Positions 33,067 to 64,000 of a stretch of DNA of 64,000 bases are shown piece by piece. The stretch's first letter is position 1. Each line of letters starts with the position of its first letter. The notes under the pieces were generated by a model, which was given only the letters and a program-made list of their open reading frames with translations, made no database searches and was not told the DNA's origin. The position numbers and the translations under genes are program-made. Source of the DNA: Patescibacteria group bacterium (GTDB lineage Bacteria; Patescibacteriota; UBA1384; 2-12-FULL-50-11); NCBI GenBank assembly GCA_016861245.1, contig BOKZ01000001.1, forward strand, positions 188,347 to 252,346, written 5' to 3'.

Positions 33067-33071
33067 GAAGC

Positions 33072-35086: not shown

Positions 35087-35121
35087 TACCTGTATTCTAG
35101 CGCAATAAACCTGATACGGAA

Positions 35122-35148
35122 ATAAAAAATCCCCGCCGAAGCGGGGAG
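35122..35148 (-). terminator. rho-independent terminator downstream of the acetyltransferase gene
   Basis: minus strand reads CTCCCCGC-ttcg-GCGGGG followed by ATTTTTTATTT. Confidence 0.6.
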
Positions 35149-35171
35149 CGATCACGGAGGTACCCCAGTGA

Positions 35172-40798: not shown

Positions 40799-41176
40799 TT
40801 AGCGTTCGCCCGTGAGGAATGTCCCAACGTAGCGCAGAACCAAGTAAGCAACGAGAATGATGATAATACCGATTAAGGCGTTAATAATCCCTTGGCGCGC
40901 GGTCTGGGCTTTACCGGCGTCACCGCCAGCGGTGATGTATTGGAAACCAGAGATAACTAAGTAAAAGAAGGCGACGATCGCAGCGATCGTTAGTACTAAA
41001 CCGATCACTTGACCGAGCAAGTTATTGAACCTGTTGCCAGCATCAGCTGCACTGGTTGGCTTAAACGGACGCAAAAAGTTAAAGTCTCCGAGCGTAAAGC
41101 CGCTGGTTTTGGCTGGGTCGCTGTTACCACCGAACTGTGCCTGCACCGTTGGTATTATGTATTCAGTTAGTTTCAT
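40799..41176 (-). CDS. VirB2/TrbC-like (T4SS-type) pilin family protein
   Basis: Two-helix hairpin with motif FQYITAGGDAGKAQTARQGIINALIGIIIIL; no type IV (class III) prepilin signal. Confidence 0.55.
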   Translation of the reverse strand: MKLTEYIIPTVQAQFGGNSDPAKTSGFTLGDFNFLRPFKPTSAADAGNRFNNLLGQVIGLVLTIAAIVAFFYLVISGFQYITAGGDAGKAQTARQGIINALIGIIIILVAYLVLRYVGTFLTGER

Positions 41177-41234
41177 TTATCCTCCCGTAATTAATCTACT
41201 CTTATTAAGAAATGAATTGTTCGCCTTGTCAAGG

Positions 41235-41603
41235 TTAGGCGTTTAAAACATTTTTTAGTAACTGCACGAGCAGATAGGAGAGCGTTGCGATAACTACACC
41301 TATCAGCGCGTACGTAATCGACTTCTTACCCTGTTCGACTTTTTTCTCATCCCCGAAAGCGGTCGTGTAAAGAAACGCCCCGTATAGCAAGTAAACAAAC
41401 GAGCCGATCGCTACGCCGAGCAGCAATAGACTCGTAAAATGGGTAATTGAGTCCGTAAGGCAGCTTGCCCCGGCGGTGCGAACCTTCTCTGGATCGGCAA
41501 TACACTCTGGAATAAGCCCGCCGCCAGTTAAAGCCGTGACACCGCTGCCGCTATCTTGCGCTGCCGCCGAACCGATCCCGAGTAGACTAAGAATTATTTT
41601 CAT
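41235..41603 (-). CDS. VirB2/TrbC-like pilin family protein (paralog)
   Basis: Signal peptide, two Cys, then FLYTTAFGDEKKVEQGKKSITYALIGVVIA core. Confidence 0.55.
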   Translation of the reverse strand: MKIILSLLGIGSAAAQDSGSGVTALTGGGLIPECIADPEKVRTAGASCLTDSITHFTSLLLLGVAIGSFVYLLYGAFLYTTAFGDEKKVEQGKKSITYALIGVVIATLSYLLVQLLKNVLNA

Positions 41604-42787
41604 GGCGCCTCCACTCTAATAACATATCTGGCTCCGGTTGAGGTCTTAATAATTACCTCGGCGGCTTCACCGCTTTGACCGTCTCCGGCGTAGCTAATAC
41701 CAAATAGTTGCGATTGTTGCCAGTTCTGGTCGTTGAAAGTAAATGTGTCTGGAGTAACAGTAACCGGTAGCTTGCCAGTTTTGGTAATCGTCACCGTCAC
41801 TTCTCCTGCCGGTGCGCTTAGCTGTAAGGCGAACTGTTCTGAGATCTGTGTGGTTAAGTCTCGAAGTAGAACGGTGCTTGGCGAGAAGTTGCTTGGATCA
41901 AAAACCAATATTGAGACACCGTTAGGATCGGCAGTAGCGCCAGAGGTAGCGGTGTTTTCGTTTGTAGTACTTGTGGAGTTATTATTATTGGCTGAATCAG
42001 GGATCTGAACTAGCGAGCCACGCTCGCCGATACCCGCAACGTAACGAACGGCAGCGAATGCTAGTAATGCAATGAGTATGCCAATAATCGCCCAGGTAAT
42101 ATTCTTTCGGGCTTTAGCCGTAACCGCCATATCGCCGCCAGATGTAATATATTGATAGCCGCTGTACATAATGCTAAAGAACGCACCAAGAGCGATTAGT
42201 ATAAGTAAGAGTTGGATCAACCTGTCAAACAGACCGCTTATTTCTAACTGCGAGAAACCCAGTCCCTTTAAGTCGTCAGTCGTAATGTTCTCAGCCAACT
42301 TTGTGGGATCACCGCCGCCTGAGCCGCCGGTGCCAGAACCGTTGTTATTACCGCTGCCGCCGTTATTTTCAGAACTACCTTCAACAGTAAATAGTATTTC
42401 TCGCGTCGATAAGCCGTTACCGGATATGATAATTCGCCCGCGTGCCCCGGGTTGGGCCGTCCCCTGGTACTCTAAAACAAGTCGACGACGGCGATTCCAG
42501 TCGTCTCGTGTAAAGGTTAAGTCGTTGCTGCCAGACCAGTAAAAAACGGCGGCGCCCTGGTGTCTGACTTCGAGCGTCACTGGGCTGCTCGGCGCCTCAG
42601 AGAGCGCGATATAAACCGGCCAACTCGATTGCCCAGCGTCTTTTGGCACCGTAAAACTACTTACCCCTTCTTCGCCGGTCGCTGCCTTAAAGATCCGGAT
42701 CGACGGCGCTGCCAACGCTTCGTGGGCAGGAAATTGGAGCGTAACTACACCAATAAGCGCAATGAGAGCGATAAGAATTTTTTTCAT
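41600..42787 (-). CDS. pilin-core protein fused to N- and C-terminal beta-rich extracellular domains
   Basis: Signal peptide; Ig-like domain; G/S/N linker; pilin core YQYITSGGDMAVTAKARKNITWAIIGILIA; S/T/N linker; C-terminal beta domain. 4-nt overlaps with both neighbours. Confidence 0.5.
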   Translation of the reverse strand: MKKILIALIALIGVVTLQFPAHEALAAPSIRIFKAATGEEGVSSFTVPKDAGQSSWPVYIALSEAPSSPVTLEVRHQGAAVFYWSGSNDLTFTRDDWNRRRRLVLEYQGTAQPGARGRIIISGNGLSTREILFTVEGSSENNGGSGNNNGSGTGGSGGGDPTKLAENITTDDLKGLGFSQLEISGLFDRLIQLLLILIALGAFFSIMYSGYQYITSGGDMAVTAKARKNITWAIIGILIALLAFAAVRYVAGIGERGSLVQIPDSANNNNSTSTTNENTATSGATADPNGVSILVFDPSNFSPSTVLLRDLTTQISEQFALQLSAPAGEVTVTITKTGKLPVTVTPDTFTFNDQNWQQSQLFGISYAGDGQSGEAAEVIIKTSTGARYVIRVEAP

Positions 42788-44480: not shown

Positions 44481-44864
44481 CTACCCAACCTGAACCTTAA
44501 GTACTCGGGTTTTGGTTTTCTCTTGTTTTGGAATCTTAATTGTGAGAATTCCGTTTCGAAGCGACGCCTCGGCTTTAGCTGCGTCTACAGATACTGGAAG
44601 GATGTAAGAGCGCATAAACGAGCCCCAGTAGCACTCTTGGACAAAATAGTTCTGGCGCTCAACGTCTGCCTCGTTACGACGCTGCCCCTTAATTGTTACA
44701 ACCTCATCAGTAATCGAGATCTCAAGATCTTCAATACTAACACCGGCGATTGGTGCCTTTAGTACAACGTTGTCCTCATCTTGATAGGCGTCGATCGCTA
44801 GCTGACCTTCTTCTGATTCGTCTTCGAGCCACTCCTCAGTAATGTGTTCTTCTTTACGTGCCAT
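44481..44864 (-). CDS. Hsp20/alpha-crystallin small heat-shock protein
   Basis: alpha-crystallin domain, GILTIKIPK C-terminal motif; start trimmed to MARKEE (44864). Confidence 0.85.
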   Translation of the reverse strand: MARKEEHITEEWLEDESEEGQLAIDAYQDEDNVVLKAPIAGVSIEDLEISITDEVVTIKGQRRNEADVERQNYFVQECYWGSFMRSYILPVSVDAAKAEASLRNGILTIKIPKQEKTKTRVLKVQVG

Positions 44865-44911
44865 TATAGATATATTATCCACTTGGGCGTACAAGTAAGT
44901 CAAGGAAAAAT

Positions 44912-50251: not shown

Positions 50252-51286
50252 ATGCTCACAACCCTATCGGTTAAAGATTTTCGAAGTTACGATAGCGCCA
50301 CTTTTTCTATCAAACCGCTAGTTATTATTACGGGACGTAACGGATCGGGAAAAACCACTTTAATTGAGGCGATTAGGGTATTATCGGTTGGGAAAAGCTT
50401 CCGTTCGAACCGGCTTGATGAAGTAATCCGGTTTAACCAGCCGTATCTACAAGTGACGGCAAATTGGAACGACGCCGAGTTAGATTTTTTCTACGGCACC
50501 CAGTTCACAGAGAATCCGATCAAGGAAAGAAGACTCCAAGTTAATAAGAAAGAAGATCAATATATCGATTATATCGGCCGTTTCCCATCGGTATTGTTTA
50601 TTCCAGAGCACCTAGAAATTATTTTAGGAGCGCCGTCAGAGCGCCGAAGATATTTTGACAGCGTTCTCTGGCAAGTTGATCGAGAATTTAGGCAGGCTCA
50701 CCTCGATTTACAACGCGTCTTAAAAGAAAGATCGGCGCTGTTATTTTTAATTAAAACAAAACGAGCCAAGATAGATGAACTCGAGCCATGGAGCGAGTTA
50801 TTAAGAGAAAAAACCGCGATAGTGCGCTCTGGTAGACAAAGATTCTCTGAGTATATCTCGCAAAAAATGGGTACCGATCTTCTCTATAGAGAAGATCTAA
50901 CGGTTACGGTAGTTAGTAAACCTGCTTTCACAGAAACTGAAGACTTAATTTTTCAAGAAATTGAAAGTGCGCAAAATCTGTTTGGGGCACATCGCGATGA
51001 AATCGAGATAGTATTTCAAGATCGTCCGGCGAGAAAATTCGCTTCTCGAGGACAGTCTAGAACGATTATTGCGGCTATTAAAGTAATCGAGGCACAGTTC
51101 TTGAAAGAGAACACAAATATAAAGCCCGTAATCTTATTAGATGATATTCTGTCTGAGCTTGATCAAACCAATACTGAGTTCGTGTTAAATAATTTCTCCA
51201 AAGATTTTCAAGTAATTGCCACGAGCGTCGAGCAAAGTAAGGAATTTAGTAATTATGAGGTTGTTGCAGTACAAAATGACGCTTGA
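50252..51286 (+). CDS. recF: DNA replication/repair protein RecF
   Basis: Walker A ITGRNGSGKTTLIEAI; SMC-like signature and Walker B (ILLDDILSELD). Confidence 0.9.
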   Translation: MLTTLSVKDFRSYDSATFSIKPLVIITGRNGSGKTTLIEAIRVLSVGKSFRSNRLDEVIRFNQPYLQVTANWNDAELDFFYGTQFTENPIKERRLQVNKKEDQYIDYIGRFPSVLFIPEHLEIILGAPSERRRYFDSVLWQVDREFRQAHLDLQRVLKERSALLFLIKTKRAKIDELEPWSELLREKTAIVRSGRQRFSEYISQKMGTDLLYREDLTVTVVSKPAFTETEDLIFQEIESAQNLFGAHRDEIEIVFQDRPARKFASRGQSRTIIAAIKVIEAQFLKENTNIKPVILLDDILSELDQTNTEFVLNNFSKDFQVIATSVEQSKEFSNYEVVAVQNDA

Positions 51287-51575
51287 ACGACTAAGTAATT
51301 TTTTAGGAAACGACTACCAAAAGAATTACCTGCAAAAAATATATCTAGCTCAAAAACTGCAAGAGCAGATTCAAAAAATCGTACCTGGTGAGTGCACGGT
51401 GATAATTAAGAGCCAGACGCTCGTAATAGAAGGGACGTCGTCAGTGTATTTACAGGCGCTAAAACTTCACCAGCGGGCTATATACGCTCAAATTAAGCGC
51501 ATTACGCCCGAACTCTACCGGACAGAGCGTCCAAAGTTACAGCTCCGACTAAAGCGATCTAATTATTCGTCGTGA
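51276..51575 (+). CDS. DUF721/DciA-like protein (putative helicase-loading factor)
   Basis: About 100 aa; overlaps the recF 3' end by 11 nt; pattern TVIIKSQTLVIEGTSSVYLQALKLHQRAIYAQIKRI resembles DUF721; start chosen at ATG 51276. Confidence 0.4.
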   Translation: MTLERLSNFLGNDYQKNYLQKIYLAQKLQEQIQKIVPGECTVIIKSQTLVIEGTSSVYLQALKLHQRAIYAQIKRITPELYRTERPKLQLRLKRSNYSS

Positions 51576-52161
51576 AATCAATAATAGTTGCTGGTATGGA
51601 ACTCGGGACTCCTCGCTCCTTTAACCAGTTCTTGGCGGCAGCCGCGACTATATCTCGCTCTTCTATATAGCTTTTTCCGTCTTTCGGGGTGGTAAAGCGA
51701 TGTTTCACTGAAACAGTAATCGCAGTAATTGACTCGTTATTATGGGTAGCTGAGATCAAGTAATCGATTGTTTCGTGCGGAAACAGCTCTAAATAGGGAA
51801 CTTTTTTAGAAGGGTCTCCTTGGTAGAGTTTAATAAAATCGTCTCCTGAGACCGGACGGAAGTAGAGCAATAACTTATTATCTTTCCCTCTTTCAACACT
51901 GTAGCTCACCGAAACAGGGGCTGAGCCGTTGCCCCAAGCTGTTACCGAGTAGCTTCCCGGTCTCACCCTAGTGCTATACGGTAACGAGCGACTATTTTTA
52001 TGAGAGTCTTTGCTAGTAGTTGCTACTAAACCGGTTTTTATTTGGCTACTTGGGTCTATGCCAATACTAAACGGTACTGTCCGGCTGTACCAAGTAATAA
52101 GCCAAACAAGTAGCCCAAGTGTCGCGATGCCCAAGACAATAATCACTTTTTTACTAATCAT
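51559..52161 (-). CDS. membrane-anchored hypothetical protein (T4SS-cluster associated)
   Basis: Start MISKKVIIVLGIATLGLLVWLI at 52161 with GGAGG RBS; ATGA overlap with the upstream gene stop. Confidence 0.4.
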   Translation of the reverse strand: MISKKVIIVLGIATLGLLVWLITWYSRTVPFSIGIDPSSQIKTGLVATTSKDSHKNSRSLPYSTRVRPGSYSVTAWGNGSAPVSVSYSVERGKDNKLLLYFRPVSGDDFIKLYQGDPSKKVPYLELFPHETIDYLISATHNNESITAITVSVKHRFTTPKDGKSYIEERDIVAAAAKNWLKERGVPSSIPATIIDFTTNN

Positions 52162-53423
52162 GGGTAGTTTACCTCCGTAGCGGCTGGCGGCTGTAAGCAA
52201 GGAATATGGCGCAAGAATTCGTACGGGTAATACCACGCGTCCCAATTGTACGTACCGCCGAGCGTTGGCCTATTATCGAGTCGTTTTGAGATACCAACAT
52301 GAAGGTGGTGAGCCTGCTCGCCGTTCGAGTTGCGTACGTAAACACCAACTTCCGCCAACTTATCACCCTTCTTTACCTGTTGTCCCTCTCTGACCGACGG
52401 CCGTTGCAAGTGGGTGTAGTACCAAAAGATATTATTTGTTTCTCTCACAGTTACTGACGTTGAGCTCTCCCCGTCACCGTCGTTATCGACCGAGACTTTT
52501 ACAACTTCGCCATCGCTGGCGCTAAAGACTCTAGTTCCAACAGGAGCCATTAAGTCGTAACCTTCGTGGCCGGCGTAGGTACCAGTTTTATAGGTACGCT
52601 TGCTAATTACATCACCCCAACCGCCGCGACCAGCGTTTCGGGCAGCCGATTCTTCCGCTACACAGGCATAATTACCCGTAGCCACACCAGCACCACCAGA
52701 AGACTCGCACTGTACCTGATTTTCGACTAACAACCTCACAATATTTAGCCTTTTGTAGTAAGGGTTGCCGTAAGAAGGATGTTTATACGACTCCTCCCAC
52801 CGTTTGCCGCTCTCGTCGTACTGCGTCCTCATAGCTGTAGCATAATTGTAAAACAGTCGAGTATTAATATTAGTTCCAGCTGGGCTGGCGTACATATCTT
52901 CGCCCTGCATCGCCCTTCGAACAGTTTTGTAAACACCCTCTAACTGCTTTTGCCAGCGCTCTTCAGTTGAGCCGCTCAAAACATCAGAACTAGCACCGCT
53001 GTCGTAATGCTTATAGCCAAAGGCTTTTTCTGGGTGCTTGAACTCCTGCTCACCCCACCAAATAGCGATTACGATAGCGGGGTTAATCCCCTCACTCTTA
53101 CCGCGCTCTAATATACTATTAATGTAATAGTCAAACTCTTTTGCGTCCGGCGTTTCCGAACGCATTTTGTTAATCTGGCTTAATCTGTAAGAATCTTTTT
53201 TTAAGATGGCGATCACTTCGCTAGGGTTAGCGCTAATCGAGGTGTCGCTAAAAGCGCTATCGGTTAGGAAACAACCATTACCCCCGAATGAGCCAGTCGG
53301 CTTATCAATCTTTGGTCCCAAGAATGTTGCTAAGAGGATAAACGGCATAATACTACCGACGATCAAGAGAATTGCGGCAAGCGCTACTATAACAATAACA
53401 ACGGCGTTGCCCCGGCGTTGCAT
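52158..53423 (-). CDS. secreted cell-wall hydrolase with C-terminal M23 (LytM) peptidase domain
   Basis: M23 motifs GYDLMAPVGTRVFSASDGEVVKV and AHHLHVGI (HxH); N-terminal TM anchor; start at 53423 forms a TAATG overlap with the giant gene. Confidence 0.65.
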   Translation of the reverse strand: MQRRGNAVVIVIVALAAILLIVGSIMPFILLATFLGPKIDKPTGSFGGNGCFLTDSAFSDTSISANPSEVIAILKKDSYRLSQINKMRSETPDAKEFDYYINSILERGKSEGINPAIVIAIWWGEQEFKHPEKAFGYKHYDSGASSDVLSGSTEERWQKQLEGVYKTVRRAMQGEDMYASPAGTNINTRLFYNYATAMRTQYDESGKRWEESYKHPSYGNPYYKRLNIVRLLVENQVQCESSGGAGVATGNYACVAEESAARNAGRGGWGDVISKRTYKTGTYAGHEGYDLMAPVGTRVFSASDGEVVKVSVDNDGDGESSTSVTVRETNNIFWYYTHLQRPSVREGQQVKKGDKLAEVGVYVRNSNGEQAHHLHVGISKRLDNRPTLGGTYNWDAWYYPYEFLRHIPCLQPPAATEVNYP

Positions 53424-56400
53424 TAGAAGAATCCCCCGAATGCGGCGTGAACCCAATCGGTGGTTTTTGTTGAACGCTGAGTGAAGCCAAGGCCGACGCG
53501 CGGGTTATTAGCTTCGCCTGGGCCAAAAACCTCAAGTGAGCGCGGGTAGAAGTACTCCGCGTTAGCTTGCCGGAAGGTAATAACCTGTACTGGCTTATTC
53601 GCACCTTGCTGTGATGCGCCGTAGTCCATGGTGGCTTCCAGAAGCTTCCCAGTAAAGTAGCGAGACCATGCCATCCAAAGTTTCGGGTCGTTCCCGTCTT
53701 TAAACGGTACGCCGTCGTCCCAGTCAAACGGATTCTCGCCCTCAGCCGGCGTGTCTTTAACCGGTTTATTTGGGTCGTTGTAGTAATCGCCGTAGTTGTA
53801 TTCCAGTTTGTCGTAATCTGGATCAAACTGGGCGTTAGCAAATCGATCTGGCGGCGGAATTGGGCAGAGATAGTCAACGCGGTACGTACCGAATAGGTAT
53901 ATCCCAGCAGCGATAATTAACCCTGCTGGTCCGAGTCCGGCTGCCATCGCGATCGCGCCGGCCACAGCGGCGTTTGTAAACCCAGGTGGCGCCTGGATGG
54001 CCTGGTCGATCGAGGCAAAGAACGCCTGGCAGGCTTCACATGCGTTTAAGGCGATGGTGATTGCCAGAACAGTCAGGTTTGCTTGCGCTTTTGCTAGGCT
54101 GGTCCGAGCGCTGTTAACCAGTGCGTCGCCGGTGCCCGTTAAGCCGGTCAGTGCTTGGACGGTTACGTTAATACCCTGAGCTGCGGCGTGAGCAGCGGTG
54201 AGCGCTCTTGAAGCGGTAATAATACCGTTAATTGCTTGATAAAGTTGGTAAACCGAACCAGCTGGTAGTCCGAGCGCTTTATCGGCCCATTGCGTAACTT
54301 TCCCGATAACAAAATCTCTTCCTAAGTCCGTAAGAGACGGGACGACGACGCGGCCGTCAATCACCAGACCCTTATTAAAGTCGAACCCATTTTGAGAGGC
54401 GTAGTAGATAGATTTAACAAATCCGCTCGGCAGTTCTTGGATCCCAAGGGTGTTAGAGAACCAGGAGTCTAGATAGTTCCACATCCCCTGATACTCGCTA
54501 GCAGTAAAGAAGTTGTCTCGGTTACTGTTTCTTACGAATTGGTAGAAAGTCTTTACGAAGTCACTCGTGAACGGACCGAGGCCGATATCAAGCCGGCTAA
54601 TGAAGGCCCCAACTATTCCGTCAACCTCACGTGAAGTTAACTCGCCTTTATATAACTTCTCGAGCATACCTATTTGGTAGCCTGGCACGAGCGCCGCTAA
54701 TTCTGGATCAAGGTAGGCAAAGACAGCGCTTGTTAGCATTGCCGCCCGCTCTTTATCTGAGCCGCTGAACATAACTCTTGAGAAATCAACGGGTACAAGA
54801 ATGCCGGCTTGACGGAGGAACGCGTCAGAGATTTTATATTTTGTGTTATCGCGTGCGGTTTGGGTTAATTCTTTTCGAGCGCTGTCCTGGTAGAGTTTTC
54901 GGGTCGATTCGGAAAGTTGCATAAACTCGTTAACTTCCATATTTGATCCAGTTTGCTCGTTGAAGAGCGCAACCGCCGCGGCGTTAATCGCATCGCTGTC
55001 GGCAAAGTTAAGTGCGCTTCGGAGCTCTTCGTACGAGAGCTTGCCCTCTTCTGGTAGATATTTATTAGCGAACTCGCTCCACATCGCCGAAGACCAGTGC
55101 TCTAAAGCTTGACGGTAATCACCGTCGATAAAGTTCTCGATGTCGTTGACGTACTCTATTGGAATTCCGGTCGCTTTTGCTAACTTCGCGATCAAACTTC
55201 GTTTCTCGAAATCATTTAAATCGCCGCTAAACGCCCGCGTGATCTGGTTGGCTAATGTCTTTAGCGCGTCTTCGTCGAAGCCGTCGAGTTTAAGCCCGAG
55301 CGCGCCGGCGAGCTGCTTTATCCCTTCGGCAATCAACAACTTAGTGCCGGTTTGTGTATCGCCGAGCGCAAACGCTAAGAACGTATCTCTAGTGAAATTA
55401 GCTTGTCGATCGAGAAACCGTCCCACGAGCGTCACACTGAAATTTAAGGCTTTCGCCCTATCTTCCAGGGGTGCGTTCTCCCAGTTACGAATTGTATCAA
55501 GCAGGAACTGCGCTTCCTGAGTTTTGATTCTAAGTGTTTCGTCAAGGTCGAAATAGTTCCAAATTTGGTCAACACCGATATTAATAAGATTCTCACCACC
55601 GGCTTTTTTAATTAGACTCTTAGTGTCGATCGCGCCGTTCACGAACTGCTCGGTCGTACCGATCGGGACACCAAGAATTAAGTCGGTGTACTCCCATTCT
55701 TCGTAATCGCTGCCAAAATACCGCTCCAGATCGTTACCAGAAAAACTGCCGGCGCTTGGCCGATCTTTCAGATAACCAGCAGGTAGCCCAAGGCGCTGCT
55801 CAACAATCGCTTGCCCGTAGTTTCCTTGAAGATCTCCTGTTAGCGGGATAGTGGTGCCCCGGTCTAAACCAAGTAGACTTGTGATCGAGTTGCCAAACAC
55901 CTCTTGCAGCGCGATTTCTAACTTCTTCTCACCCTTAATCACTTGGTAACCGGTACCTATGTTCCAGCCGATAATATTATCAGCTTGGGCGCCGCCGACT
56001 TTTTGCAAGACGCTTAAGCCATCACCCCTAACAACGGCTTGGACATCTTGCGCCGAAAGCTGGTTCTGTGGGTCGAGTTCAAGCTCCTTATTAATAAAGT
56101 TCGTTAGAACGCCGATTGACTTTGAGTTAAACTTGCCTCGAGTTAGATCGCGGGCGCTCGAAAAATCCAATCCTGTTTGTTCGGCGATAACGCTGGCGGC
56201 GATGTTATCCTTCAAATACCCAAGAGTTATCTCCTTGCCGGCTAGCAGGTCACGTACTACGCCGTTACCGATTGCCCGGTACTGACCCGGTATTCCTTTA
56301 ACAGCTGCTTCTCTGAGAAAGTTGTAGCCGTAGTCGCGTAGTTCTGTTAGTGCCGCCTGCTGTTTAGCTTTATCTTCAGCGAAAAGTTTAGCCAAAGAGG

Positions 56401-57712
56401 CGATCGGAACACTCCGATCGATCGGGGCGTTTTCGAGGGTGATAGGCGGCGTAGTTCTGGCTCTAGTTGCAGATTCTAACGCTTGGCGCTGTTGATCAGT
56501 TAGCCGAAAAGCGTCAGCTAAAACGTTGACGCCGGCCCAAATTAGCCCCTCTGTATCGTTTCGCTGGATTTTATCGATCGTACCGGTTATCACTCCGAAA
56601 GCCGCGTCTTTTTTCTCGAGAGCGCTAAAGACGCCTTTAACCGTTTCGATCTTGTTCATATCTTCGAGTGAGTGGGTGTCTAGAAAGAGCGTCGGTAGTC
56701 CGGTAGCGTTTTCGACTGTACGCTTACCGGCACTTTCCAGTATCTGTCGCCACCCACTTCCTCGGAGTGTTCCGGGCGGAACGCCGAGTAGCATCTCGAT
56801 ATTAGCGCGGGCGATCGCGATGCGAGTGTCTTGGTCGTTGTCAGCGATCGAGAAGCCTTCGGGTAGCCCAGGAATAATTTTGTGTAAATAGCTAGCACCG
56901 ATTGAGCGTATAAGTGAATCTGCTAACGGGTCGCTTGTAATCGAGCCACCGCCAAACTCCTTGAGTAGAATATTAGCGCCGACGTACAGTAAAACATCTT
57001 CCAACCGCAAGCCCTTACCGAACTCAGCGAGAAAATCCATCTCGCCAGATTCGTTTAACATCTGCATAATTCCGTCGGTACCGAGCGTACCGGCGATCTC
57101 AGTTAAGCTTGGTCCACGTGGCGTCGGGTTTCGAGCGATACCGTCACGGCTCTGCCAAGCCACTTTTATTGGCTTAGCGCGCTGAAAACGAGTTTTGTTA
57201 CCACCGAGATGCCGTCGCTCAACGAGTTTGCAGGTTATCTTACCGACTTCAGAGATATCGACCGCCTGGCCAGTGCTGTGCGCCGAGACAATTCCGACAT
57301 CTTCTTCGATCGCGTCGAGCGATTCTCGATCGTACTTACCACGTCCGTCGGTATCGTAATTTTTGAGTATCCGTTGGGCCTTAATGTACGGTAGCCCGGC
57401 ACCGCCGAACTCCTTTGGCTTAACGAGATAAATCAAGTAGTCGGTAACCCGAACGTCAACTCGACCCTCCTCGATCGCCGCTCGATCTTGTGGCGAGAGC
57501 TGAATCTTGTCTTCCGTATCGAAGATCCACTCAAGATCGAGAACTGAGTCGGCGTCGGCGGTAACCCCGGTTGGGGCGACGTCTTCTAGTGAGTCAAGTT
57601 CCTCTTCGCTTGGTTGCGCTTGTGCTAGTGCCGTGCTTGTAACAAGAATCGGCTGGAACCCAAGCGTTAAAGTAAGAATAGCGCCAATTAATAGTTTATA
57701 AGCCCCTACCAT
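53423..57712 (-). CDS. giant secreted protein (1429 aa), T4SS-associated; function unknown
   Basis: N-terminal signal peptide (…ALAQAQP); long largely alpha/coil body; hydrophobic helices near the C-terminus (AVAGAIAMAAGLGPAGLIIAAGIYLFG); 1-nt overlaps at both ends. Confidence 0.6.
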   Translation of the reverse strand: MVGAYKLLIGAILTLTLGFQPILVTSTALAQAQPSEEELDSLEDVAPTGVTADADSVLDLEWIFDTEDKIQLSPQDRAAIEEGRVDVRVTDYLIYLVKPKEFGGAGLPYIKAQRILKNYDTDGRGKYDRESLDAIEEDVGIVSAHSTGQAVDISEVGKITCKLVERRHLGGNKTRFQRAKPIKVAWQSRDGIARNPTPRGPSLTEIAGTLGTDGIMQMLNESGEMDFLAEFGKGLRLEDVLLYVGANILLKEFGGGSITSDPLADSLIRSIGASYLHKIIPGLPEGFSIADNDQDTRIAIARANIEMLLGVPPGTLRGSGWRQILESAGKRTVENATGLPTLFLDTHSLEDMNKIETVKGVFSALEKKDAAFGVITGTIDKIQRNDTEGLIWAGVNVLADAFRLTDQQRQALESATRARTTPPITLENAPIDRSVPIASLAKLFAEDKAKQQAALTELRDYGYNFLREAAVKGIPGQYRAIGNGVVRDLLAGKEITLGYLKDNIAASVIAEQTGLDFSSARDLTRGKFNSKSIGVLTNFINKELELDPQNQLSAQDVQAVVRGDGLSVLQKVGGAQADNIIGWNIGTGYQVIKGEKKLEIALQEVFGNSITSLLGLDRGTTIPLTGDLQGNYGQAIVEQRLGLPAGYLKDRPSAGSFSGNDLERYFGSDYEEWEYTDLILGVPIGTTEQFVNGAIDTKSLIKKAGGENLINIGVDQIWNYFDLDETLRIKTQEAQFLLDTIRNWENAPLEDRAKALNFSVTLVGRFLDRQANFTRDTFLAFALGDTQTGTKLLIAEGIKQLAGALGLKLDGFDEDALKTLANQITRAFSGDLNDFEKRSLIAKLAKATGIPIEYVNDIENFIDGDYRQALEHWSSAMWSEFANKYLPEEGKLSYEELRSALNFADSDAINAAAVALFNEQTGSNMEVNEFMQLSESTRKLYQDSARKELTQTARDNTKYKISDAFLRQAGILVPVDFSRVMFSGSDKERAAMLTSAVFAYLDPELAALVPGYQIGMLEKLYKGELTSREVDGIVGAFISRLDIGLGPFTSDFVKTFYQFVRNSNRDNFFTASEYQGMWNYLDSWFSNTLGIQELPSGFVKSIYYASQNGFDFNKGLVIDGRVVVPSLTDLGRDFVIGKVTQWADKALGLPAGSVYQLYQAINGIITASRALTAAHAAAQGINVTVQALTGLTGTGDALVNSARTSLAKAQANLTVLAITIALNACEACQAFFASIDQAIQAPPGFTNAAVAGAIAMAAGLGPAGLIIAAGIYLFGTYRVDYLCPIPPPDRFANAQFDPDYDKLEYNYGDYYNDPNKPVKDTPAEGENPFDWDDGVPFKDGNDPKLWMAWSRYFTGKLLEATMDYGASQQGANKPVQVITFRQANAEYFYPRSLEVFGPGEANNPRVGLGFTQRSTKTTDWVHAAFGGFF

Positions 57713-59025
57713 CAGTCTGCTCCGTACCTCTTGGCGCCGTTAAACTTATGAGTGGTTAGTGGTCGCTCTTTAATCGTTGTGGTCTGAGAGGACGAGTCGA
57801 TAATCTTACCGTTGCCGATATAGATTCCGACGTGGTCAAATAAGGCGCCAGCGTATCGTCGTTGGGCGCGACTACCGTTCCCAAACCAGACGATGTCCCC
57901 TGGCCGCATCACGCCCTCGTTGATCCGCTCGTTACTAGCAGTCTCAGCTCGGTCAATCACAAGTCTTAATACTTTATTGTTCCAAAGAGCGGTAGTGGTC
58001 CCGACAATTGCGTTTGGTACGCCAGATTCCCATAAAGTTGTGGACGAGAACGAGGCACAGGCTAGCTTATCTGGCGCACCAGTTATCCGACAGAAGTTAC
58101 CAGTAGGCTCGCCGACATGGGTTTTGGCGTTAGCTACGATCCATGTTCCAAACGGCAACGTGCCCTCGAACTCCAACATTTTTTTCTGCAAATCGTCGCG
58201 AATCTTCATCCGCTCAACTTTATTAGAGGTTTTAAGGAGAGAGTCTAAGATCGGTGTGAACTCTACGATCTTGGCATCAATTGCGGCGACTTTATTCGCG
58301 GAGTGCTTCTGAGCGTTGCCTTTAATCCGTTGATAGCGATCCTTCTCGTCCTCAACAACCTCTTTTACTGTTTTATCGTTTGCGATCTTATCGCCCGATA
58401 ACGCTGAGAGTAGTGTAGCCTGTTCTTGTTGCGAAACGCTGGTCGGATATCGCGCTGGTCCCTTGCCAGTGTCACCACTAAATGAGAAGAGGGCAACGAT
58501 AATGAGAACTATAATTATCACTAGCAGGATAATCCCAACCGCTAGCCACACATACGGATTTTTAGCGAGAAGCTGAGTTACTAGCTTTTTTATCGCTTGA
58601 CCGATCGCTTTACCTGCTTGTTTGGCGGCCTTTTTCGTTGCTTCGCCAGCGGCTCGAGCCGCTGCTCGGGCGCTTCGCTCACCCGCCTTTACCGGTTGTT
58701 GTTCAACTCTTTTGGCAGCGCTTTGTTCGGCATTTTTAGAGACGGTCTTTTGGGCGACTTGTCGGCCGGACTTTACCTCCTCGGCAATCTGCTGAGAACG
58801 CTCTAGTTCCTTCTGATGCAACTCCTGACGCTTAGTCGCCTCTATCGGGTCCGTTTTAGTTGGCGACTCAGTGCTGCGGCGCTGTCTAATCTCATCCCAG
58901 ACTTGTTGAAGATCAGGCTCGGATTCTTCTTGTTCATTAAGCTGTCCGACGAGCTCCTCTGGGGTATCGTCGAACTCCTCTTCTGGTGTTAGTGGTGGTG
59001 GTGTTTTTGGATCCCCTCCGGCCAT
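57712..59025 (-). CDS. bitopic cell-wall hydrolase with C-terminal NlpC/P60 domain (PrgK/VirB1-like role)
   Basis: Acidic and K/A-rich cytoplasmic N-terminus, one TM helix, C-terminal NlpC/P60 signature (…GAPDKLACASF…GDIVWFGNG…HVGIYIGNGKIID). Confidence 0.6.
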   Translation of the reverse strand: MAGGDPKTPPPLTPEEEFDDTPEELVGQLNEQEESEPDLQQVWDEIRQRRSTESPTKTDPIEATKRQELHQKELERSQQIAEEVKSGRQVAQKTVSKNAEQSAAKRVEQQPVKAGERSARAAARAAGEATKKAAKQAGKAIGQAIKKLVTQLLAKNPYVWLAVGIILLVIIIVLIIVALFSFSGDTGKGPARYPTSVSQQEQATLLSALSGDKIANDKTVKEVVEDEKDRYQRIKGNAQKHSANKVAAIDAKIVEFTPILDSLLKTSNKVERMKIRDDLQKKMLEFEGTLPFGTWIVANAKTHVGEPTGNFCRITGAPDKLACASFSSTTLWESGVPNAIVGTTTALWNNKVLRLVIDRAETASNERINEGVMRPGDIVWFGNGSRAQRRYAGALFDHVGIYIGNGKIIDSSSQTTTIKERPLTTHKFNGAKRYGAD

Positions 59026-59027
59026 TT

Positions 59028-61649
59028 TTACTCACTTATTCCGTAGAGCTCTAATAATTGCTTTGGATCGGTGGTGATAATCTGGTCTTCGGTGTACGAC
59101 GATACGATTTGAATGGCAGCGCGATTATTACCAGCGAAGAACAACCCCTGCCCAACCTCAGCTTCAGTCAAAAAGAACTTTTCGCCATCAGTAAGCTTGA
59201 AGGTCTCCGCAATTTTATCGATGGCGGAGGTAGATTGTCCAAGTAGTAGTTGCGTCGAAGAGTTGTTAACGACCGACCGACCGTAGTTGGAGCTCAAAAA
59301 ATCCTCAACGTCTTGGCTAATAACAGTTAAACCGAGGTAGTATTTACGCGCGCGTTTAGCGATCGCATTAACAAACTTCGCCGAATCTTCGTAGCGCATC
59401 ATAATCCAGCCCTCGTCTAGAATCATCATCCGTTTCTTGAGATCGCTTTTAACGCGGCTCCAGATGTAATTTAACGCCATATACATCGCGATCGGCCGCA
59501 GCTCCTCTTCCATATCCCGAATCGAGAAGACGGTGACTTTATTGTTCATATCGATATTAGTTTGGGCGTTGAAGAGACTGGCAAAGCTCCCGTCGGTGTA
59601 TTTAGCGAGCCGGTTCACGAGCGACTCGGTACCCGTCATATTTTGTAGGACTGTCGTAAGGTCGCTCAGTGTGGGGGGAGTATTTGAGTGGGTGGCGGCG
59701 TCGGTGGTGATGTCGCGAAGGGCGTACGTTTCGTAGAGCGCTTTATCCAGTAGGTTATCTTCCTCTGGGGATAGGCTTCCTGCCATTAGCGCGACCAGTC
59801 CATGAACTGACGTCACTGTGGCACGCAGGAGCTGCTCGCCGGTCTCGTCGCTTCCTTCTCGATACTTTGGCAGATCGAATGGGTTAATTTTTTGCTGCGA
59901 GTTGAGCGAGAGGTTAATGTAGGTGCCGCCGACAGCTTCTGCTAAAGATTTGTACTCATTTTCTGGGTCGATCACGATTACTTCAGAGCCAAGCATCAGC
60001 GATCTAATCGCTTCAAGCTTCACGGCGTACGATTTACCGGCACCGGATTTGGCGAAGACAACCTGATTAGCGTTCTCCATTTTGAAGCGGTCAAATAGTA
60101 CTAACGAGCTGTTATGGAGATTAATGCCGTACAGTACGCCGTCGTGGTGAGACAGCTCAGCTGAGGTAAACGGAAACGTTGTTGAGAGTGAAGCGGTGTC
60201 AAGATTTCGAACAACATCCAATTGGTCGTCGCCGAGCGGTAATGTCGAATTAAAGCCCTGCTCCATCTGTAGGAGCGCTTGTTTGGTGTAAATTAGCTGC
60301 CCACCTAGGATCGCCTCGAATTGCTTAGACATTTTATTTAGTTCGTCGATCGAGGTGGCGTACAAAGTGAAGTAAAGACTCATCTGGAAAAGCCGAGTCT
60401 CACCTTTTTGTAATGTGTCGCGAAGCTCTTCGATATCGCCGACGGCAGTCTCAAGTTCGGGATTTCTCACAAGTCCTTTTTCAGCTTCTATCTGTAAGCT
60501 CGACTGGAGCTGCGTAGTTTTTCGACGAAGTTGTCCGAGCAATACGTTCGTCTCGATCGGGTAAATAAACATACTAATGTCGAGCGTTGCGTCGTAGTTA
60601 ATAATCGGTGAAAGCCAGTTTGCCTGTAAGTATCGCGGGTACGTGTAGACAAACAGCGTTCGAACAAAGAAGCTGCCGAGCTGGATGTAGTTCGGTGTGA
60701 TATTCATACCGCCTGGTGCGATAATGTCTAACACACTAGCTACACCTTGACGTAACACCTCATCGGTACTCGTTGGGTCGCTATGCTTGACGCCCAACTT
60801 GCCGAATATCTCACTGACGGTGGTCTTTTTCATCGCCGACGGGTTGGCTAGTTCGATCTCCTCCTTAGTCGGAGCGTTTGCCGTTTTTTCTGGGTTTGGT
60901 GCCGCTTGCGCTTGTTGTAACTTAACGTCGGATTGCGGTGCGTTTTTGTTTGTCGCCTCTTCGAGCAACTTTTGGCCGTGCTCCAAGATTGGGGCTGTAA
61001 ACTGTTCGGGGTCTTTCAGATGCTGGGTATACGATTCTTCTGGGTTATAGGTGTTATAAAAGAGCTCAATAATCTCTTTAGTATCTAGCTCTTTAGTTGT
61101 AACGCCGAGCGAGTTTAAGCGACCGCTAATTGTGCGCGATCGCTCCTCGAGTATTTCTTTATAACCTTTAAATTCGTCGTCACTAATTGCAGTAACGCCG
61201 ACTTTCTTTCGTTTTAATACTTTGTCGATAAGCGTTTCGTTCTCGACAGCGCCTTTAGCGGTGTGACTGATAACGATGTAGATCGACTTCTCCATAATGT
61301 TAATCTGCTCACTCAGGGTTTTGACGAAATCTAAGTAGTCCTTAGCTTGCCTTTGGAGTAATTCATTAATCTCGCCGGCACTAGCGCGTTCGACTTTATC
61401 GATATACGCCGCTAAGTCGACTCGCCGCGACTGAACGACGATTTCTACGGGAAATTTCAGCGAATTTAAAAAACTTTGATACTGATAGATAGCCACTTCT
61501 TTCTCGTTCTCGCTTTTCAAATCGAAGTTAACTGGCACGGCTTTAATTACTTTTCGTAGGCGTCCGTCTTTGAGGATGATAATACCGTCTCGAATTCGTT
61601 CGATCTGCAAATACTTTTGTGTTGGAGCAACTAGTGGTTTTTTCGCCAT
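59028..61649 (-). CDS. VirB4/TrbE/PrgJ-family type IV secretion ATPase
   Basis: 873 aa; Walker A FAKSGAGKSYAVK, Walker B MMILDEGWIMM, typical VirB4 N-terminal domain. Confidence 0.85.
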   Translation of the reverse strand: MAKKPLVAPTQKYLQIERIRDGIIILKDGRLRKVIKAVPVNFDLKSENEKEVAIYQYQSFLNSLKFPVEIVVQSRRVDLAAYIDKVERASAGEINELLQRQAKDYLDFVKTLSEQINIMEKSIYIVISHTAKGAVENETLIDKVLKRKKVGVTAISDDEFKGYKEILEERSRTISGRLNSLGVTTKELDTKEIIELFYNTYNPEESYTQHLKDPEQFTAPILEHGQKLLEEATNKNAPQSDVKLQQAQAAPNPEKTANAPTKEEIELANPSAMKKTTVSEIFGKLGVKHSDPTSTDEVLRQGVASVLDIIAPGGMNITPNYIQLGSFFVRTLFVYTYPRYLQANWLSPIINYDATLDISMFIYPIETNVLLGQLRRKTTQLQSSLQIEAEKGLVRNPELETAVGDIEELRDTLQKGETRLFQMSLYFTLYATSIDELNKMSKQFEAILGGQLIYTKQALLQMEQGFNSTLPLGDDQLDVVRNLDTASLSTTFPFTSAELSHHDGVLYGINLHNSSLVLFDRFKMENANQVVFAKSGAGKSYAVKLEAIRSLMLGSEVIVIDPENEYKSLAEAVGGTYINLSLNSQQKINPFDLPKYREGSDETGEQLLRATVTSVHGLVALMAGSLSPEEDNLLDKALYETYALRDITTDAATHSNTPPTLSDLTTVLQNMTGTESLVNRLAKYTDGSFASLFNAQTNIDMNNKVTVFSIRDMEEELRPIAMYMALNYIWSRVKSDLKKRMMILDEGWIMMRYEDSAKFVNAIAKRARKYYLGLTVISQDVEDFLSSNYGRSVVNNSSTQLLLGQSTSAIDKIAETFKLTDGEKFFLTEAEVGQGLFFAGNNRAAIQIVSSYTEDQIITTDPKQLLELYGISE

Positions 61650-61651
61650 CG

Positions 61652-62068
61652 TTATTGTTTTGTCTCCGGATTATCTAAAACACTTGCTAGCTCGTTAACC
61701 CGAATCGGATCGAGTGTTTTCTTTGGTTGTTGCTCAGCTTTTTTAGTTTGTTTTAATGGCTGGGATTGTTGCGCCGGAGTGTAATGCTGCCAAACTCGAG
61801 CTCGAGGCTGAGACATGTAGCGAACCATCGCCATAAAGAAAACAGGGAACGGCCGATCTTGTATCTTTATAAACGCCATGCAAAAACTAAACACTCCGAT
61901 TGGGATGGCTAAAATCCAAAAGAGAAAAGAGAAGCCACTTAGAACTAATTTGCTAAATAAAATATAGATAATTAGTCCGCCAAAAAGTAAGTAGAAAAAT
62001 TGGCTCAAGGTTAACGGACCAATAATTCGGTCCTGCATATCTATATTCTGAGGAACTTTAAATTGCAT
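61652..62068 (-). CDS. PrgI/VirB3-like small membrane protein
   Basis: 138 aa, two TM helices, N-terminal VPQNIDMQDRIIGPLTLSQFFYLLFGG pattern; directly upstream of VirB4 with a 2-nt gap. Confidence 0.45.
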   Translation of the reverse strand: MQFKVPQNIDMQDRIIGPLTLSQFFYLLFGGLIIYILFSKLVLSGFSFLFWILAIPIGVFSFCMAFIKIQDRPFPVFFMAMVRYMSQPRARVWQHYTPAQQSQPLKQTKKAEQQPKKTLDPIRVNELASVLDNPETKQ

Positions 62069-62114
62069 TTCCCCCCATAGTTACAATCTACCGTATCAGT
62101 ATACTAGGCGCCAG

Positions 62115-62888
62115 CTAGCTACCGTACTGTTGTAAGTAGAGACCAGTTGCGGTGATTGCGGTTTCCTCGGAGACTTGTTTATTCTCTACCGCATCAAGCG
62201 CTTCAATAATGCGTTTTAGCCGAACTAAAAAGTTTAACTGTTCACCGAACATCTCAAATCGTTCGAGGGAGCCTGCTAAACCTAAGGATTCTAGCATCGC
62301 CACTAAACTATTTGGTATGGTGATATGGTTAAATGGCGGGTTATTGCCGTAGGCTGCTAACCCAGAAAAGAATTGTTCGATTCCACCGTAAAGAGCGAGG
62401 CGCTGCTCCTTTGTTGCCTGCTTTAGAGAGTTGTAGTAGGGAGCAACAAGCTCGAGGCTATTTTTGCGCTGGTAGTAGTTTGCGATGTTATCTTCCACCC
62501 TTTGATATAACGCTAGCTGCTCAAACACATTTTTTGTTATTGTGCTTTGTTTTAATTGACCGCCCGGCGCCACAATATTCGACTCTGTTGTTGGTATCGG
62601 CTGATCAATCCCAGTTCCGTATAAACTTCTAATAAATCCTTCCTGTTGTGTTCGATTAAGTTGTTCGCTGTTAAATAGATATTGTTCGCAAATAAACCTC
62701 CTACGCTCGGCCTGCTCATATCTAACTTGTGACAACGCGGACTCAAACAGCTCTTGTCTGATTTCGTCGCCAACCGAACCCAATAGCGTTTGGACCTGAG
62801 TAAAAATATCTCCGTCGCCGTAGTAAAGCAGCTGTTGGATTTGTAGGATAACCTGATCCTCGGTTTCGTTCCAAATTCGATCAGTCAT
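62115..62888 (-). CDS. hypothetical soluble protein (T4SS-cluster associated)
   Basis: 257 aa, no TM segment, no motif recognised; 8-nt overlap with the upstream ORF. Confidence 0.35.
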   Translation of the reverse strand: MTDRIWNETEDQVILQIQQLLYYGDGDIFTQVQTLLGSVGDEIRQELFESALSQVRYEQAERRRFICEQYLFNSEQLNRTQQEGFIRSLYGTGIDQPIPTTESNIVAPGGQLKQSTITKNVFEQLALYQRVEDNIANYYQRKNSLELVAPYYNSLKQATKEQRLALYGGIEQFFSGLAAYGNNPPFNHITIPNSLVAMLESLGLAGSLERFEMFGEQLNFLVRLKRIIEALDAVENKQVSEETAITATGLYLQQYGS

Positions 62889-63948
62889 CTTTCTTCGGAG
62901 TCTTTCCTAGATGTGAGGCTGGGGTGCCAGAAATTGAGTCGTGGGATAGTACGGCGTTTTTCATATCTTGTGTGGATAGCTTCTTATCCTTATCACCACT
63001 AAATAGTTTCGACTGGAATTCATCAAAATTATCAAACGTGTGTTCTTCGCCAGTTGTTCTGCTCTTAACAACGATTGGTTTCTCGCCATCTTTCATAATC
63101 ATGCTAGCGAGTTCCCGCAGTGCTTCTGGGCTTCGAGTGTCGCGCTGATTTTTGCCGATATCTTTTAGCGCTTGGATGTTTTTAATTAACGTGTTTTGGA
63201 ACTTTGCATCCATTCCAATTGTGTCGCTGTTAAAGAACTTCTTTTTAAGATTGGCGCGTTCAGTCTCGTTAAGATCCTTAAGGCCTTCGTTGATATCCTT
63301 AAGGATACTTTTAACGCTCCCATCGGCGAGCGTGTCCTCGTTCTGAGCTTTAATCCCTTCATTAAAGGCCTTGGCCTGCCGTTTCTCCTCAGCCTTCACC
63401 AGAGTCGAGAAGGTTTTATCGGTTTGATATTTCTGTACCATATCTTCGGCGCTCATGCCAGCCAAGTCGTCGTGACCGACCTTAAGCTTCTCTAGGTCTG
63501 CTAATAACTCGGAGTGGTAAGATTTCCAGAAAGTTAAATCGCCCTTTTCTTCATCGGTTCGTTCGGCCTCTGGTTTCTTCTCGATCTTGTCGATTTCTCC
63601 AGCGATATCGCCAGCCTCTCGAAGTTTACTAATAACGTCCTTGCGCCCCGTTGTGTAGATGCCAGTAACTTCACGCTCAGCGCTCTGTACTGCGTCAGCA
63701 AATGCTTTGTCTTTAGAACTTGCTGCCGCGAATTGCTCCATGAGTTTCTTGTTGTCATCGTTTTTAGTAAAGGCAACTCTTTTTCTATTCATCTCTATCT
63801 TTTCTCGAGCCTCTTCCAAGCCTTTGTTGTAGGCAGAGGATATTTGGCGCTCCGGCAGGGAACCGCCTCGGCGCTGCAGTCGGTCTAGGAAATTGGCAAG
63901 CTTGCCCTCCCCAGCCTTTGTGTTCGCCTTAGCTTGTTCGGCTGCCAA
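62881..63948 (-). CDS. highly charged (K/E/D-rich) hypothetical protein
   Basis: 355 aa, predicted coil-rich, no TM segment; the N-terminus may extend towards the window edge. Confidence 0.35.
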   Translation of the reverse strand: MAAEQAKANTKAGEGKLANFLDRLQRRGGSLPERQISSAYNKGLEEAREKIEMNRKRVAFTKNDDNKKLMEQFAAASSKDKAFADAVQSAEREVTGIYTTGRKDVISKLREAGDIAGEIDKIEKKPEAERTDEEKGDLTFWKSYHSELLADLEKLKVGHDDLAGMSAEDMVQKYQTDKTFSTLVKAEEKRQAKAFNEGIKAQNEDTLADGSVKSILKDINEGLKDLNETERANLKKKFFNSDTIGMDAKFQNTLIKNIQALKDIGKNQRDTRSPEALRELASMIMKDGEKPIVVKSRTTGEEHTFDNFDEFQSKLFSGDKDKKLSTQDMKNAVLSHDSISGTPASHLGKTPKKDD

Positions 63949-64000
63949 GTAGTTAGATAACTCCTCGCCGCGTTTGGTTGTGCGAGCGAATTTCCGATAA

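Follow-up and report, generated by a model that had tools for sequence, protein, structure and literature searches.

The 64,000-nucleotide (nt) stretch of Patescibacteria contig BOKZ01000001.1 analysed here, called the window throughout, carries next to recF, dnaN and dnaA a co-directional string of minus-strand genes that runs from 51559 to the window end and encodes a type IV secretion system (T4SS). The locus specifies a membrane translocon (VirB6-like protein, PrgI/VirB3 and VirB4), two wall hydrolases and an exported protein of 1429 amino acids (aa), hereafter the giant, with pilins encoded nearby; within 73 kb, no genes for DNA processing (relaxase, coupling protein or integrase) were present among the open reading frames (ORFs) scanned and the gene calls. 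Positions are in window numbering, and sequence past the window end was taken from L001, a longer contig that has 0 mismatches over 11886 shared bases and extends 8.9 kb past 64000. The features are as follows.

62881..64000, minus strand: 3′ part (residues about 586-957 of 957 aa) of a putative VirB6-like protein, frame open to base 64000
62115..62888, minus strand: 257-aa cytoplasmic protein, gene overlapping the VirB6-like gene by 8 nt
61652..62068, minus strand: PrgI/VirB3-like protein, 138 aa, with 2 transmembrane (TM) helices (PF12666)
59028..61649, minus strand: VirB4 ATPase, 873 aa, with a TrsD/TraC-like N-terminal domain (conju_CD1110, P-loop_TraG)
57712..59025, minus strand: bitopic NlpC/P60 (CHAP-like) cell-wall endopeptidase, 437 aa, of VirB1/PrgK-type role (NLPC_P60)
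53423..57712, minus strand: the giant, 1429 aa (Sec-type signal, AlphaFold models, homolog alignments)
57068..57517, minus strand: giant residues about 66-215, probable degenerate Hedgehog/DD-peptidase (LAS)-like domain
53891..54082, minus strand: giant residues about 1211-1274, two weakly hydrophobic helices with a conserved loop
53426..53890, minus strand: giant residues 1275-1429, conserved C-terminal alpha/beta domain without known relatives
52158..53423, minus strand: membrane-anchored M23 metallopeptidase, 421 aa, counted from the ATG of a TAATG overlap (Peptidase_M23)
51559..52161, minus strand: 200-aa single-TM exported protein, final gene of the string (TM helix, ATGA overlap with the M23 gene)
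40799..42787, minus strand: three VirB2-like pilin genes (125, 122 and 395 aa; PF18895)

An earlier reading of this DNA, made by a model from the letters alone (the sequence-only reading), had counted ten genes between 51559 and 64000; we counted eight, and nine make up the whole string when a 398-aa gene beyond the window is included. From 5′ to 3′ the genes encode the 398-aa exported protein, the VirB6-like protein, the 257-aa protein, PrgI, VirB4, NlpC/P60, the giant, M23 and the 200-aa protein. The tight packing with ATGA/TAATG overlaps noted earlier held on measurement, the successive junctions on L001 lying between -8 and +76 nt (-7, -8, +76, +2, +2, -1 and -1 nt), with the last gene joined by a 4-nt ATGA overlap.

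VirB4 scored 388.8 bits (5e-116) against NCBIfam conju_CD1110, passing the curated equivalog cutoff of 325, and matched Pfam P-loop_TraG at 1.7e-26 and, over residues 22-202, NCBIfam TrsD at 6.4e-5. Among PDB sequences it matched 4AG5, a solved VirB4 domain, at 1.3e-39 and TrwK at 2e-6, and its Walker A (KSGAGKS) and Walker B (ILDE) motifs are intact. The protein is 55-80% identical to VirB4 of other Patescibacteria; among plasmid relatives that cover most of it, the best of them from Bacillota, identity is 27-36% and never above 36%. The PrgI/VirB3-like protein matched PF12666 with 41 bits (E 2.8e-10) against a cutoff of 27. Its residues 4-93 align with positions 1-91 of the model, a span that favours the 138-aa start over a 128-aa gene call, and its gene stops 2 nt ahead of virB4. 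Both assignments agree with the sequence-only reading.

That reading had also placed two soluble proteins upstream of PrgI. One of them stands: the 257-aa protein has no TM helix and no family match in Pfam or NCBIfam. It evolves fast, with an ortholog detectable only in L011 (a 98%-identical genome), and its slot is occupied by a 283-312-aa gene in the related loci L003 and L005. The other, ORF 62881..63948 (355 aa), lies within the C-terminal 372 residues of a 957-aa membrane protein, of which it is the cytoplasmic tail; the full gene occupies L001 7135-10008 and starts ~1.75 kb past the window end. The 957-aa protein begins with a signal peptide and an exported domain of roughly 270 aa, continues with 5 further TM helices (residues 301-505) and ends in a hydrophilic tail of 450 aa. 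A precomputed match to PF19590 TrbL_3 is recorded for it on L001, and residues 301-463 align, at a pairwise E of 1e-7, with the protein that occupies this operon slot in Pontibacillus and itself matches TrbL. Together these give moderate support to its being an extended VirB6-like membrane protein; a tblastn search of plasmids with its TM core returned no match. The string opens with a gene (L001 5945-7141 (+), ~1.75-2.9 kb past the window) that shares 7 nt with the VirB6-like gene. Its product, an exported protein of 398 aa that contains Cys, has no family match, and the tblastn matches to it are short (roughly 55-60 residues) and confined to L011 and L016.

The two enzymes predicted earlier, a bitopic NlpC/P60 hydrolase and an M23 peptidase, were both recovered above their Pfam cutoffs and are membrane-anchored, the combination taken here to mark a VirB1/PrgK role. 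The 437-aa protein has one TM helix (161-179), a C-terminal NLPC_P60 domain (1.8e-6) and a weak match to conju_CD1108 (1e-3). The M23 protein matched Peptidase_M23 at 3.6e-17 and LytM (2B44) at 3e-8, and both motifs, HxxxD (HEGYD) and HxH (HLH), are present. Wall enzymes vary among related loci: M23 orthologs in L003 and L004 combine SLT and M23 domains (L003 14362-15516), and the slot after VirB4, filled by NlpC/P60 in most loci, encodes a YkuD (L,D-transpeptidase-fold) protein in L005 (8191-9339). The small membrane protein that ends the string (200/228 aa), also called correctly before, has a single TM helix and only sub-threshold matches to fn3_3 and CarboxypepD_reg. It is kept in 7 related loci, its position is that of SEML1_0004/0005 of Southlakia epibionticum, annotated Prealbumin-like and PEGA, and it is possibly a PEGA/prealbumin-like beta-sandwich.

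The pilin genes, absent from the earlier account, lie ~10 kb from the T4SS core on the opposite side of the dnaA/origin region. Their products matched PF18895 T4SS_pilin at 5.1e-9, 6.6e-9 and 3.3e-5, and each pilin domain has two hydrophobic helices; the 395-aa product also has a long N-terminal extension. After the pilins come a 452-aa single-TM protein with no family match (43080-44438, minus strand) and Hsp20 (44481-44903, minus strand), and pilins followed by Hsp20 is also the order of SEML1_0014-0020 in Southlakia. A PilB/GspE-type ATPase gene (39170-40747, plus strand; T2SSE at 2.4e-117 and an MshEN domain) immediately adjoins the pilin array, and locus L023 has a T2SSE gene near its origin region too.

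Flanks and conservation of the locus

Directly downstream of the string, on the opposite strand, are a DciA-like ORF, recF, dnaN and dnaA (dnaA at 47569-48927), and past dnaA are yidC, tRNAs, a ComF-like gene and Hsp20. The 119-aa ORF after recF (51216-51575, plus strand) is probably DciA-like, as the genes at the same position in L005 and L023 have a PF05258 domain; it converges on the last T4SS gene and shares 17 nt with it at its 3′ end, which leaves no space for terminators between the two transcription units. On the other side, L001 continues past the window with the rest of the 957-aa gene, the 398-aa gene, a divergent 208-aa gene, a 117-aa gene, and genes for LeuRS, TsaD, FemAB and a Mur ligase.

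No relaxase, coupling protein (VirD4/TcpA), integrase or recombinase was found among the large window ORFs scanned against Pfam, in line with the sequence-only reading, which had seen neither relaxase nor VirD4; the other large ORFs matched only housekeeping, polysaccharide-synthesis and type IV pilus genes. Past 64000, where that reading had allowed that an ordinary conjugative element might come into view, the gene calls of the next 8.9 kb supplied the VirB6-like gene and no relaxase, VirD4 or integrase. The G+C content of the T4SS locus, 45-51%, is within the range of other chromosomal parts of the window.

Related loci were fetched through homologs of the giant, including those of 15 GTDB species genomes. 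The order VirB6-like, PrgI, VirB4, wall enzyme, giant, M23, small protein, recF, dnaN, dnaA recurs in these Patescibacteria wherever the contig reaches, with some weakly conserved genes undetected, and the recF-dnaN-dnaA flank is the same in every fetched locus that extends to it, in more than 10 species. Across these loci VirB4 is 58-80% identical and DnaA 55-64%. A VirB4 as conserved as DnaA, at a fixed site, argues for vertical descent under strong constraint and not for a mobile element, and indicates that the locus is a vertically inherited, constrained chromosomal system.

Elsewhere in the window, two clusters (11984-16976 and 28904-35323) encode glycosyltransferases, a Wzy-like ligase/polymerase, flippase-like proteins and UDP-GlcNAc 2-epimerase, and indicate substantial surface-polysaccharide synthesis. 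G+C falls to 41-43% over 24-34 kb. Adjoining the low-G+C polysaccharide cluster are four successive ORFs (716, 115, 479 and 746 aa; 22839-28923, minus strand), for which no Pfam matches were found at E <= 1e-4.

The giant and its LAS-like head

The giant overlaps each neighbouring gene by 1 nt. The length and signal peptide assigned by the sequence-only reading were borne out, the latter as a signal-like N-terminal segment. Sequence and AlphaFold models, computed in two halves with mean predicted local distance difference test (pLDDT) scores of 76 and 80, give a layout of signal-like N-terminus, small beta-sheet domain, ~1000 helical residues, hairpin and C-terminal alpha/beta domain, the last small and confidently modelled. 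The mean Kyte-Doolittle values of the two hairpin helices are 1.11 and 1.78, with Ala+Gly contents of 25% and 44%; genuine membrane anchors of the same operon score 2.4-3.7. The hairpin loop is highly conserved, with C1225, C1228, D1236, P1242 and G1244 invariant. The full-length profile found nothing at E <= 10 among PDB sequences, and outside the head there were no specific matches in PDB, Pfam or NCBIfam; the helical body of ~1000 residues appears to be a novel helical repeat. Compared with itself, the protein shows a marginal reciprocal resemblance of residues 290-380 to 620-690, where an LG(L/V)PxG motif recurs, which is too little to define a repeat family.

The sequence-only reading had found no recognisable domain in the giant, which needs amendment at the N-terminal head, where several weak signals point to a degenerate LAS-like domain. 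The head carries the motif S143-x-H145-x-x-G148-x-A150-x-D152, with S143, H145, G148 and D152 present in 37/37 homologs and A150 in 36/37; among 34 diverse members of a wider superfamily, D152 is invariant and S143, H145, G148 and A150 are at least 90% conserved. SxHxxGxAxD is the signature of the LAS (Hedgehog/DD-peptidase) zinc enzymes, in which it supplies His and Asp zinc ligands. Scanned singly, the 34 heads matched VanY (10), Peptidase_M15_4 (5), HH_signal (2), Extensin-like_C (2) and M15_3 (1), all below cutoff, and among PDB sequences the head-domain profile picked up Sonic hedgehog (E about 1.3-1.7). Gln187 is invariant and lies 35 residues after D152, which we take to be the spacing of the third zinc-ligand His in Sonic hedgehog. 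No conserved catalytic Glu was seen in the 37 homologs or the 34 superfamily members. The residues E165/H168 were weighed as an ExxH zinc motif, an idea dropped for their poor conservation (E165 in 19/37 and H168 in 23/37 homologs, both lost in the wider family). Judged from these residue patterns, the head is probably a non-catalytic or atypical LAS-like module, and it more likely binds the peptidoglycan stem peptide than cleaves it.

The full-length giant family is narrow: a search space of 5.8 billion proteins yielded 36 clusters at 90% identity, and 15 of 185,579 GTDB species genomes carry it. Named homologs are labelled Berkelbacteria, Saccharimonadales, Saccharibacteria or Patescibacteria group; the metagenome-assembled genome DTUPAT3 is 98% identical, and across related loci the giant is 37-47% identical, falling to 25% in the most divergent of them. 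When residues 1-1200 were searched exhaustively, a superfamily of 176 clusters at 50% identity emerged, mostly of 2000-3300 aa, the majority of which share only giant residues about 65-350. Repeating the word-indexed search with the giant alignment brought in one more protein, a search with the head-domain alignment gave one match, and a Pfam scan of four larger superfamily members gave none.

Gene context ties the 1400-1500-aa subfamily to the T4SS: the giant lies downstream of VirB4 and a wall-enzyme gene, usually directly adjoining the latter, in all 16 of the 16 sequence-distinct loci that extend far enough upstream. Of four distant relatives whose context was fetched, three are beside VirB4 genes or the dnaA-dnaN origin region, and a 2649-aa relative with the shared head adjoins a T4SS and dnaA in another lineage. 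The 3282-aa relative P0140 follows an NlpC/P60 gene, with no VirB4 within 10 kb.

Role of the system

We interpret the locus, with a probability of about 0.8, as a chromosomal, relaxase-less Patescibacteria T4SS that derives from a monoderm (Firmicutes-type, MPF-FATA/CD1110) mating-pair apparatus and works at the epibiont-host interface. The sequence-only reading had favoured secretion or cell contact over DNA transfer, and the profile matches, the flank content and the conserved order at recF-dnaN-dnaA all support it. In such a machine VirB4 would power the building of a channel and pilus that cross the wall of the cell itself, which NlpC/P60 and M23 would open, possibly along with that of the host, and the apparatus would move proteins or other macromolecules across the epibiont-host interface instead of conjugating DNA. 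The giant may be an accessory envelope component, with its head binding the wall, its helical body spanning it and its conserved hairpin tying the protein to the membrane complex.

Several points weigh against this interpretation. A VirD4 homolog could lie at another place in the genome, a common situation in Patescibacteria (PMC12102498). The VirB6 assignment draws on the precomputed Pfam match, membrane topology and one pairwise alignment; current Pfam and NCBIfam scans of the 957-aa protein gave no TrbL match, and one of its 9 orthologs gave such a match, at E = 0.37. No VirB8-like (NTF2-fold) protein was matched by sequence among the locus proteins, of which those of 200, 398 and 257 aa are the candidates for this part. 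The LAS-like assignment of the head combines several weak signals, none significant alone, and the role proposed for the giant is one we infer only. Finally, the published evidence for function of Patescibacteria T4SSs is of essentiality for growth on a host only and comes from one species, Southlakia epibionticum ML1, by transposon sequencing (Tn-seq) (PMC10633639).

The machine could instead work inward, as a Ced/ComB-like system that takes up host nucleic acid (DNA or RNA) or other macromolecules and feeds an organism unable to make nucleotides. A 2026 preprint on a cultured relative describes the acquisition of host RNA, along with tubes at the interface that may be T4SS pili. A coupling protein, normally needed by exporters, is missing from the system. 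VirB4 also matches the archaeal DNA importers CedB (1.6e-7) and CedD (2.9e-5), but weakly, far under the family cutoffs and over the shared P-loop region only. In Southlakia, ComEC natural transformation is dispensable whereas the T4SS is essential (2025 review), which does not favour nutritional DNA uptake but leaves a possible ComEC-independent route. We consider this inward reading unlikely; inward transport of host nucleic acid is nonetheless possible alongside other roles, with which it is compatible.

The place of the giant within the interface T4SS can be questioned separately. It could be a surface adhesin or a remodeller of the wall that acts independently, sharing an operon with the hydrolases without being a structural part of the T4SS; the NlpC/P60-giant pair of P0140, away from VirB4, would fit this, as would the 176-cluster superfamily, whose members have the head domain alone in common. 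The constant placement of the 1400-1500-aa subfamily downstream of VirB4 and a wall-enzyme gene, the 1-nt overlaps with both neighbours in the window, and the place of its positional counterpart in Southlakia inside an essential T4SS block tell the other way and make a separate function doubtful. At the opposite extreme, the giant might be the host-facing working part, with a peptidoglycan-recognising pseudo-peptidase head, a helical rod of ~1000 residues and a conserved hairpin; once exported, the protein would reach over both cell walls and insert in the host membrane. Weakly hydrophobic and with an Ala/Gly-rich second helix, this hairpin looks less like a normal membrane anchor than like the hairpins by which pore-forming translocators insert. 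We think this reading improbable; were it true, the giant would create the conduit that carries macromolecules into or out of the epibiont.

An integrated conjugative element or decayed conjugative plasmid, with a T4SS that transfers DNA to other cells, would account for the VirB4, PrgI and NlpC/P60 families, which are those of Firmicutes conjugative elements, and for a prgI-virB4-hydrolase order that mirrors conjugative operons, but it was rejected as extremely improbable on the lack of mobility genes among the scanned ORFs of the window and the gene calls of the 8.9 kb past it, on flanks that are core genes (dnaA/dnaN/recF on one side, LeuRS/TsaD on the other), on the fixed site and a VirB4 divergence no faster than that of DnaA, and also sits poorly with a locus G+C in the ordinary chromosomal range.

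Comparison with known systems

The reading of this locus as an epibiont T4SS is the view already published for Patescibacteria (PMC10633639; PMC12102498; PMC12857230); it is correct and is not new. What is new is the locus of a Berkelbacteria-like lineage, for which no gene-by-gene description was found in the published T4SS accounts consulted, and the giant family with its degenerate LAS-like head is the sole unexplored element. A phylum survey by Quinonero-Coronel et al. (2025) described a distinct VirB4 clade related to MPF-FATA, rare relaxases, proximity to dnaA, VirB2-like pilin arrays and non-VirB1 hydrolases adjoining virB4 (PMC12102498). Patescibacterial host labels, dnaA proximity, VirB2-like pilins and the lack of a relaxase in the scanned ORFs were all found here. 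The VirB4 identities, 55-80% to other Patescibacteria and at most 36% to plasmid proteins covering most of it, would be consistent with a place in that clade. The Patescibacteria T4SS is the first T4SS reported essential to its carrier bacterium, and a 2025 review regards these systems as unique among monoderm T4SSs for essentiality and pili.

The closest described counterpart is that of Southlakia epibionticum (Wang et al., 2023; PMC10633639), where genes SEML1_0001-0020 encode dnaA, dnaN, recF, small exported proteins, a lysozyme/cysteine-protease protein, a 1113-aa protein, VirB4, PrgI, VirB6-like proteins, pilins and Hsp20. The T4SS itself (SEML1_0006-0019) directly follows dnaA-dnaN-recF, has no recognisable coupling protein or relaxase, and is nearly all essential by Tn-seq, pilins included, with the exception of SEML1_0012; downstream of VirB4, the 1113-aa Hedgehog/DD-peptidase-domain protein and the lysozyme/cysteine-protease protein are all essential. 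The two systems share the site after dnaA-dnaN-recF, PrgI, VirB4 and large VirB6-like protein(s), hydrolases and a >1000-aa Hedgehog/DD-peptidase-type protein directly downstream of VirB4, small exported beta-sandwich-like proteins at the string end, VirB2-like pilins and Hsp20 nearby, and a locus without relaxase or coupling protein. They differ in that VirB4 is here one 873-aa protein with a fused TrsD/TraC-like domain, whereas Southlakia has a separate 293-aa protein followed by a 612-aa VirB4. There is one VirB6-like gene here and two in Southlakia, and an NTF2-like (VirB8-like) gene was not detected in the present locus. NlpC/P60 and M23 are in separate genes here, and Southlakia has a lysozyme/lysozyme/cysteine-protease fusion; the pilins lie across the origin here and are adjacent in Southlakia. 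The LAS-like domain is N-terminal in the 1429-aa protein and C-terminal in the Southlakia 1113-aa protein, and with the domain at opposite ends the orthology of the two giants is unproven.

With the LAS/Hedgehog proteins themselves (VanY, Peptidase_M15, Ply500, MepA, ShhN) the head of the giant shows a resemblance and no demonstrated membership, and no Pfam model reaches its cutoff; it differs from them in having Gln at the position we presume to be that of the third-ligand His and in its lack of a conserved catalytic Glu.

To the MPF-FATA systems (PrgH-PrgI-PrgJ-PrgK of pCF10; the CD1110-type Clostridioides CTn) the locus is linked by the same VirB4 family, by PrgI/VirB3 and a bitopic wall hydrolase as its immediate upstream and downstream neighbours, and by the lack of outer-membrane core proteins. 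Unlike them, it has no relaxase, coupling protein, oriT or adhesin, has VirB2-like pilins, is chromosomally fixed and vertically inherited, and has a giant helical protein inserted.

The best plasmid match to VirB4 (36% identity) is on a Bacillota megaplasmid of Pontibacillus sp. ALD_SL1 (L024, NZ_CP062975.1, 351.8-361.4 kb), in an operon of two T4SS_pilin genes, a TrbL/VirB6-like gene, a PrgI/TraL-like gene, a gene for a 274-aa protein, VirB4 and a gene for a 1050-aa NlpC/P60+M23 fusion. This module adjoins flagellar genes and has no annotated relaxase nearby. VirB2-like pilins in a monoderm T4SS thus extend beyond Patescibacteria. Pontibacillus has no counterpart of the giant, which shows no similarity to the 1050-aa fusion, and the joining of NlpC/P60 and M23 in this nearest Bacillota relative suggests, from gene arrangement, that the giant was inserted between two ancestrally adjacent hydrolase modules. 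The published surveys consulted do not spell out this placement of the giant between modules that are fused in the nearest Bacillota system, nor the 1400-3300-aa superfamily (176 clusters at 50% identity) with its degenerate LAS-like head, nor a pilin/VirB6/VirB3/VirB4/hydrolase module on a Bacillota megaplasmid with no relaxase annotated nearby. These observations leave the current picture of the system unchanged, and they offer candidates, open to test, for the part of the machine that spans the wall or contacts the host.

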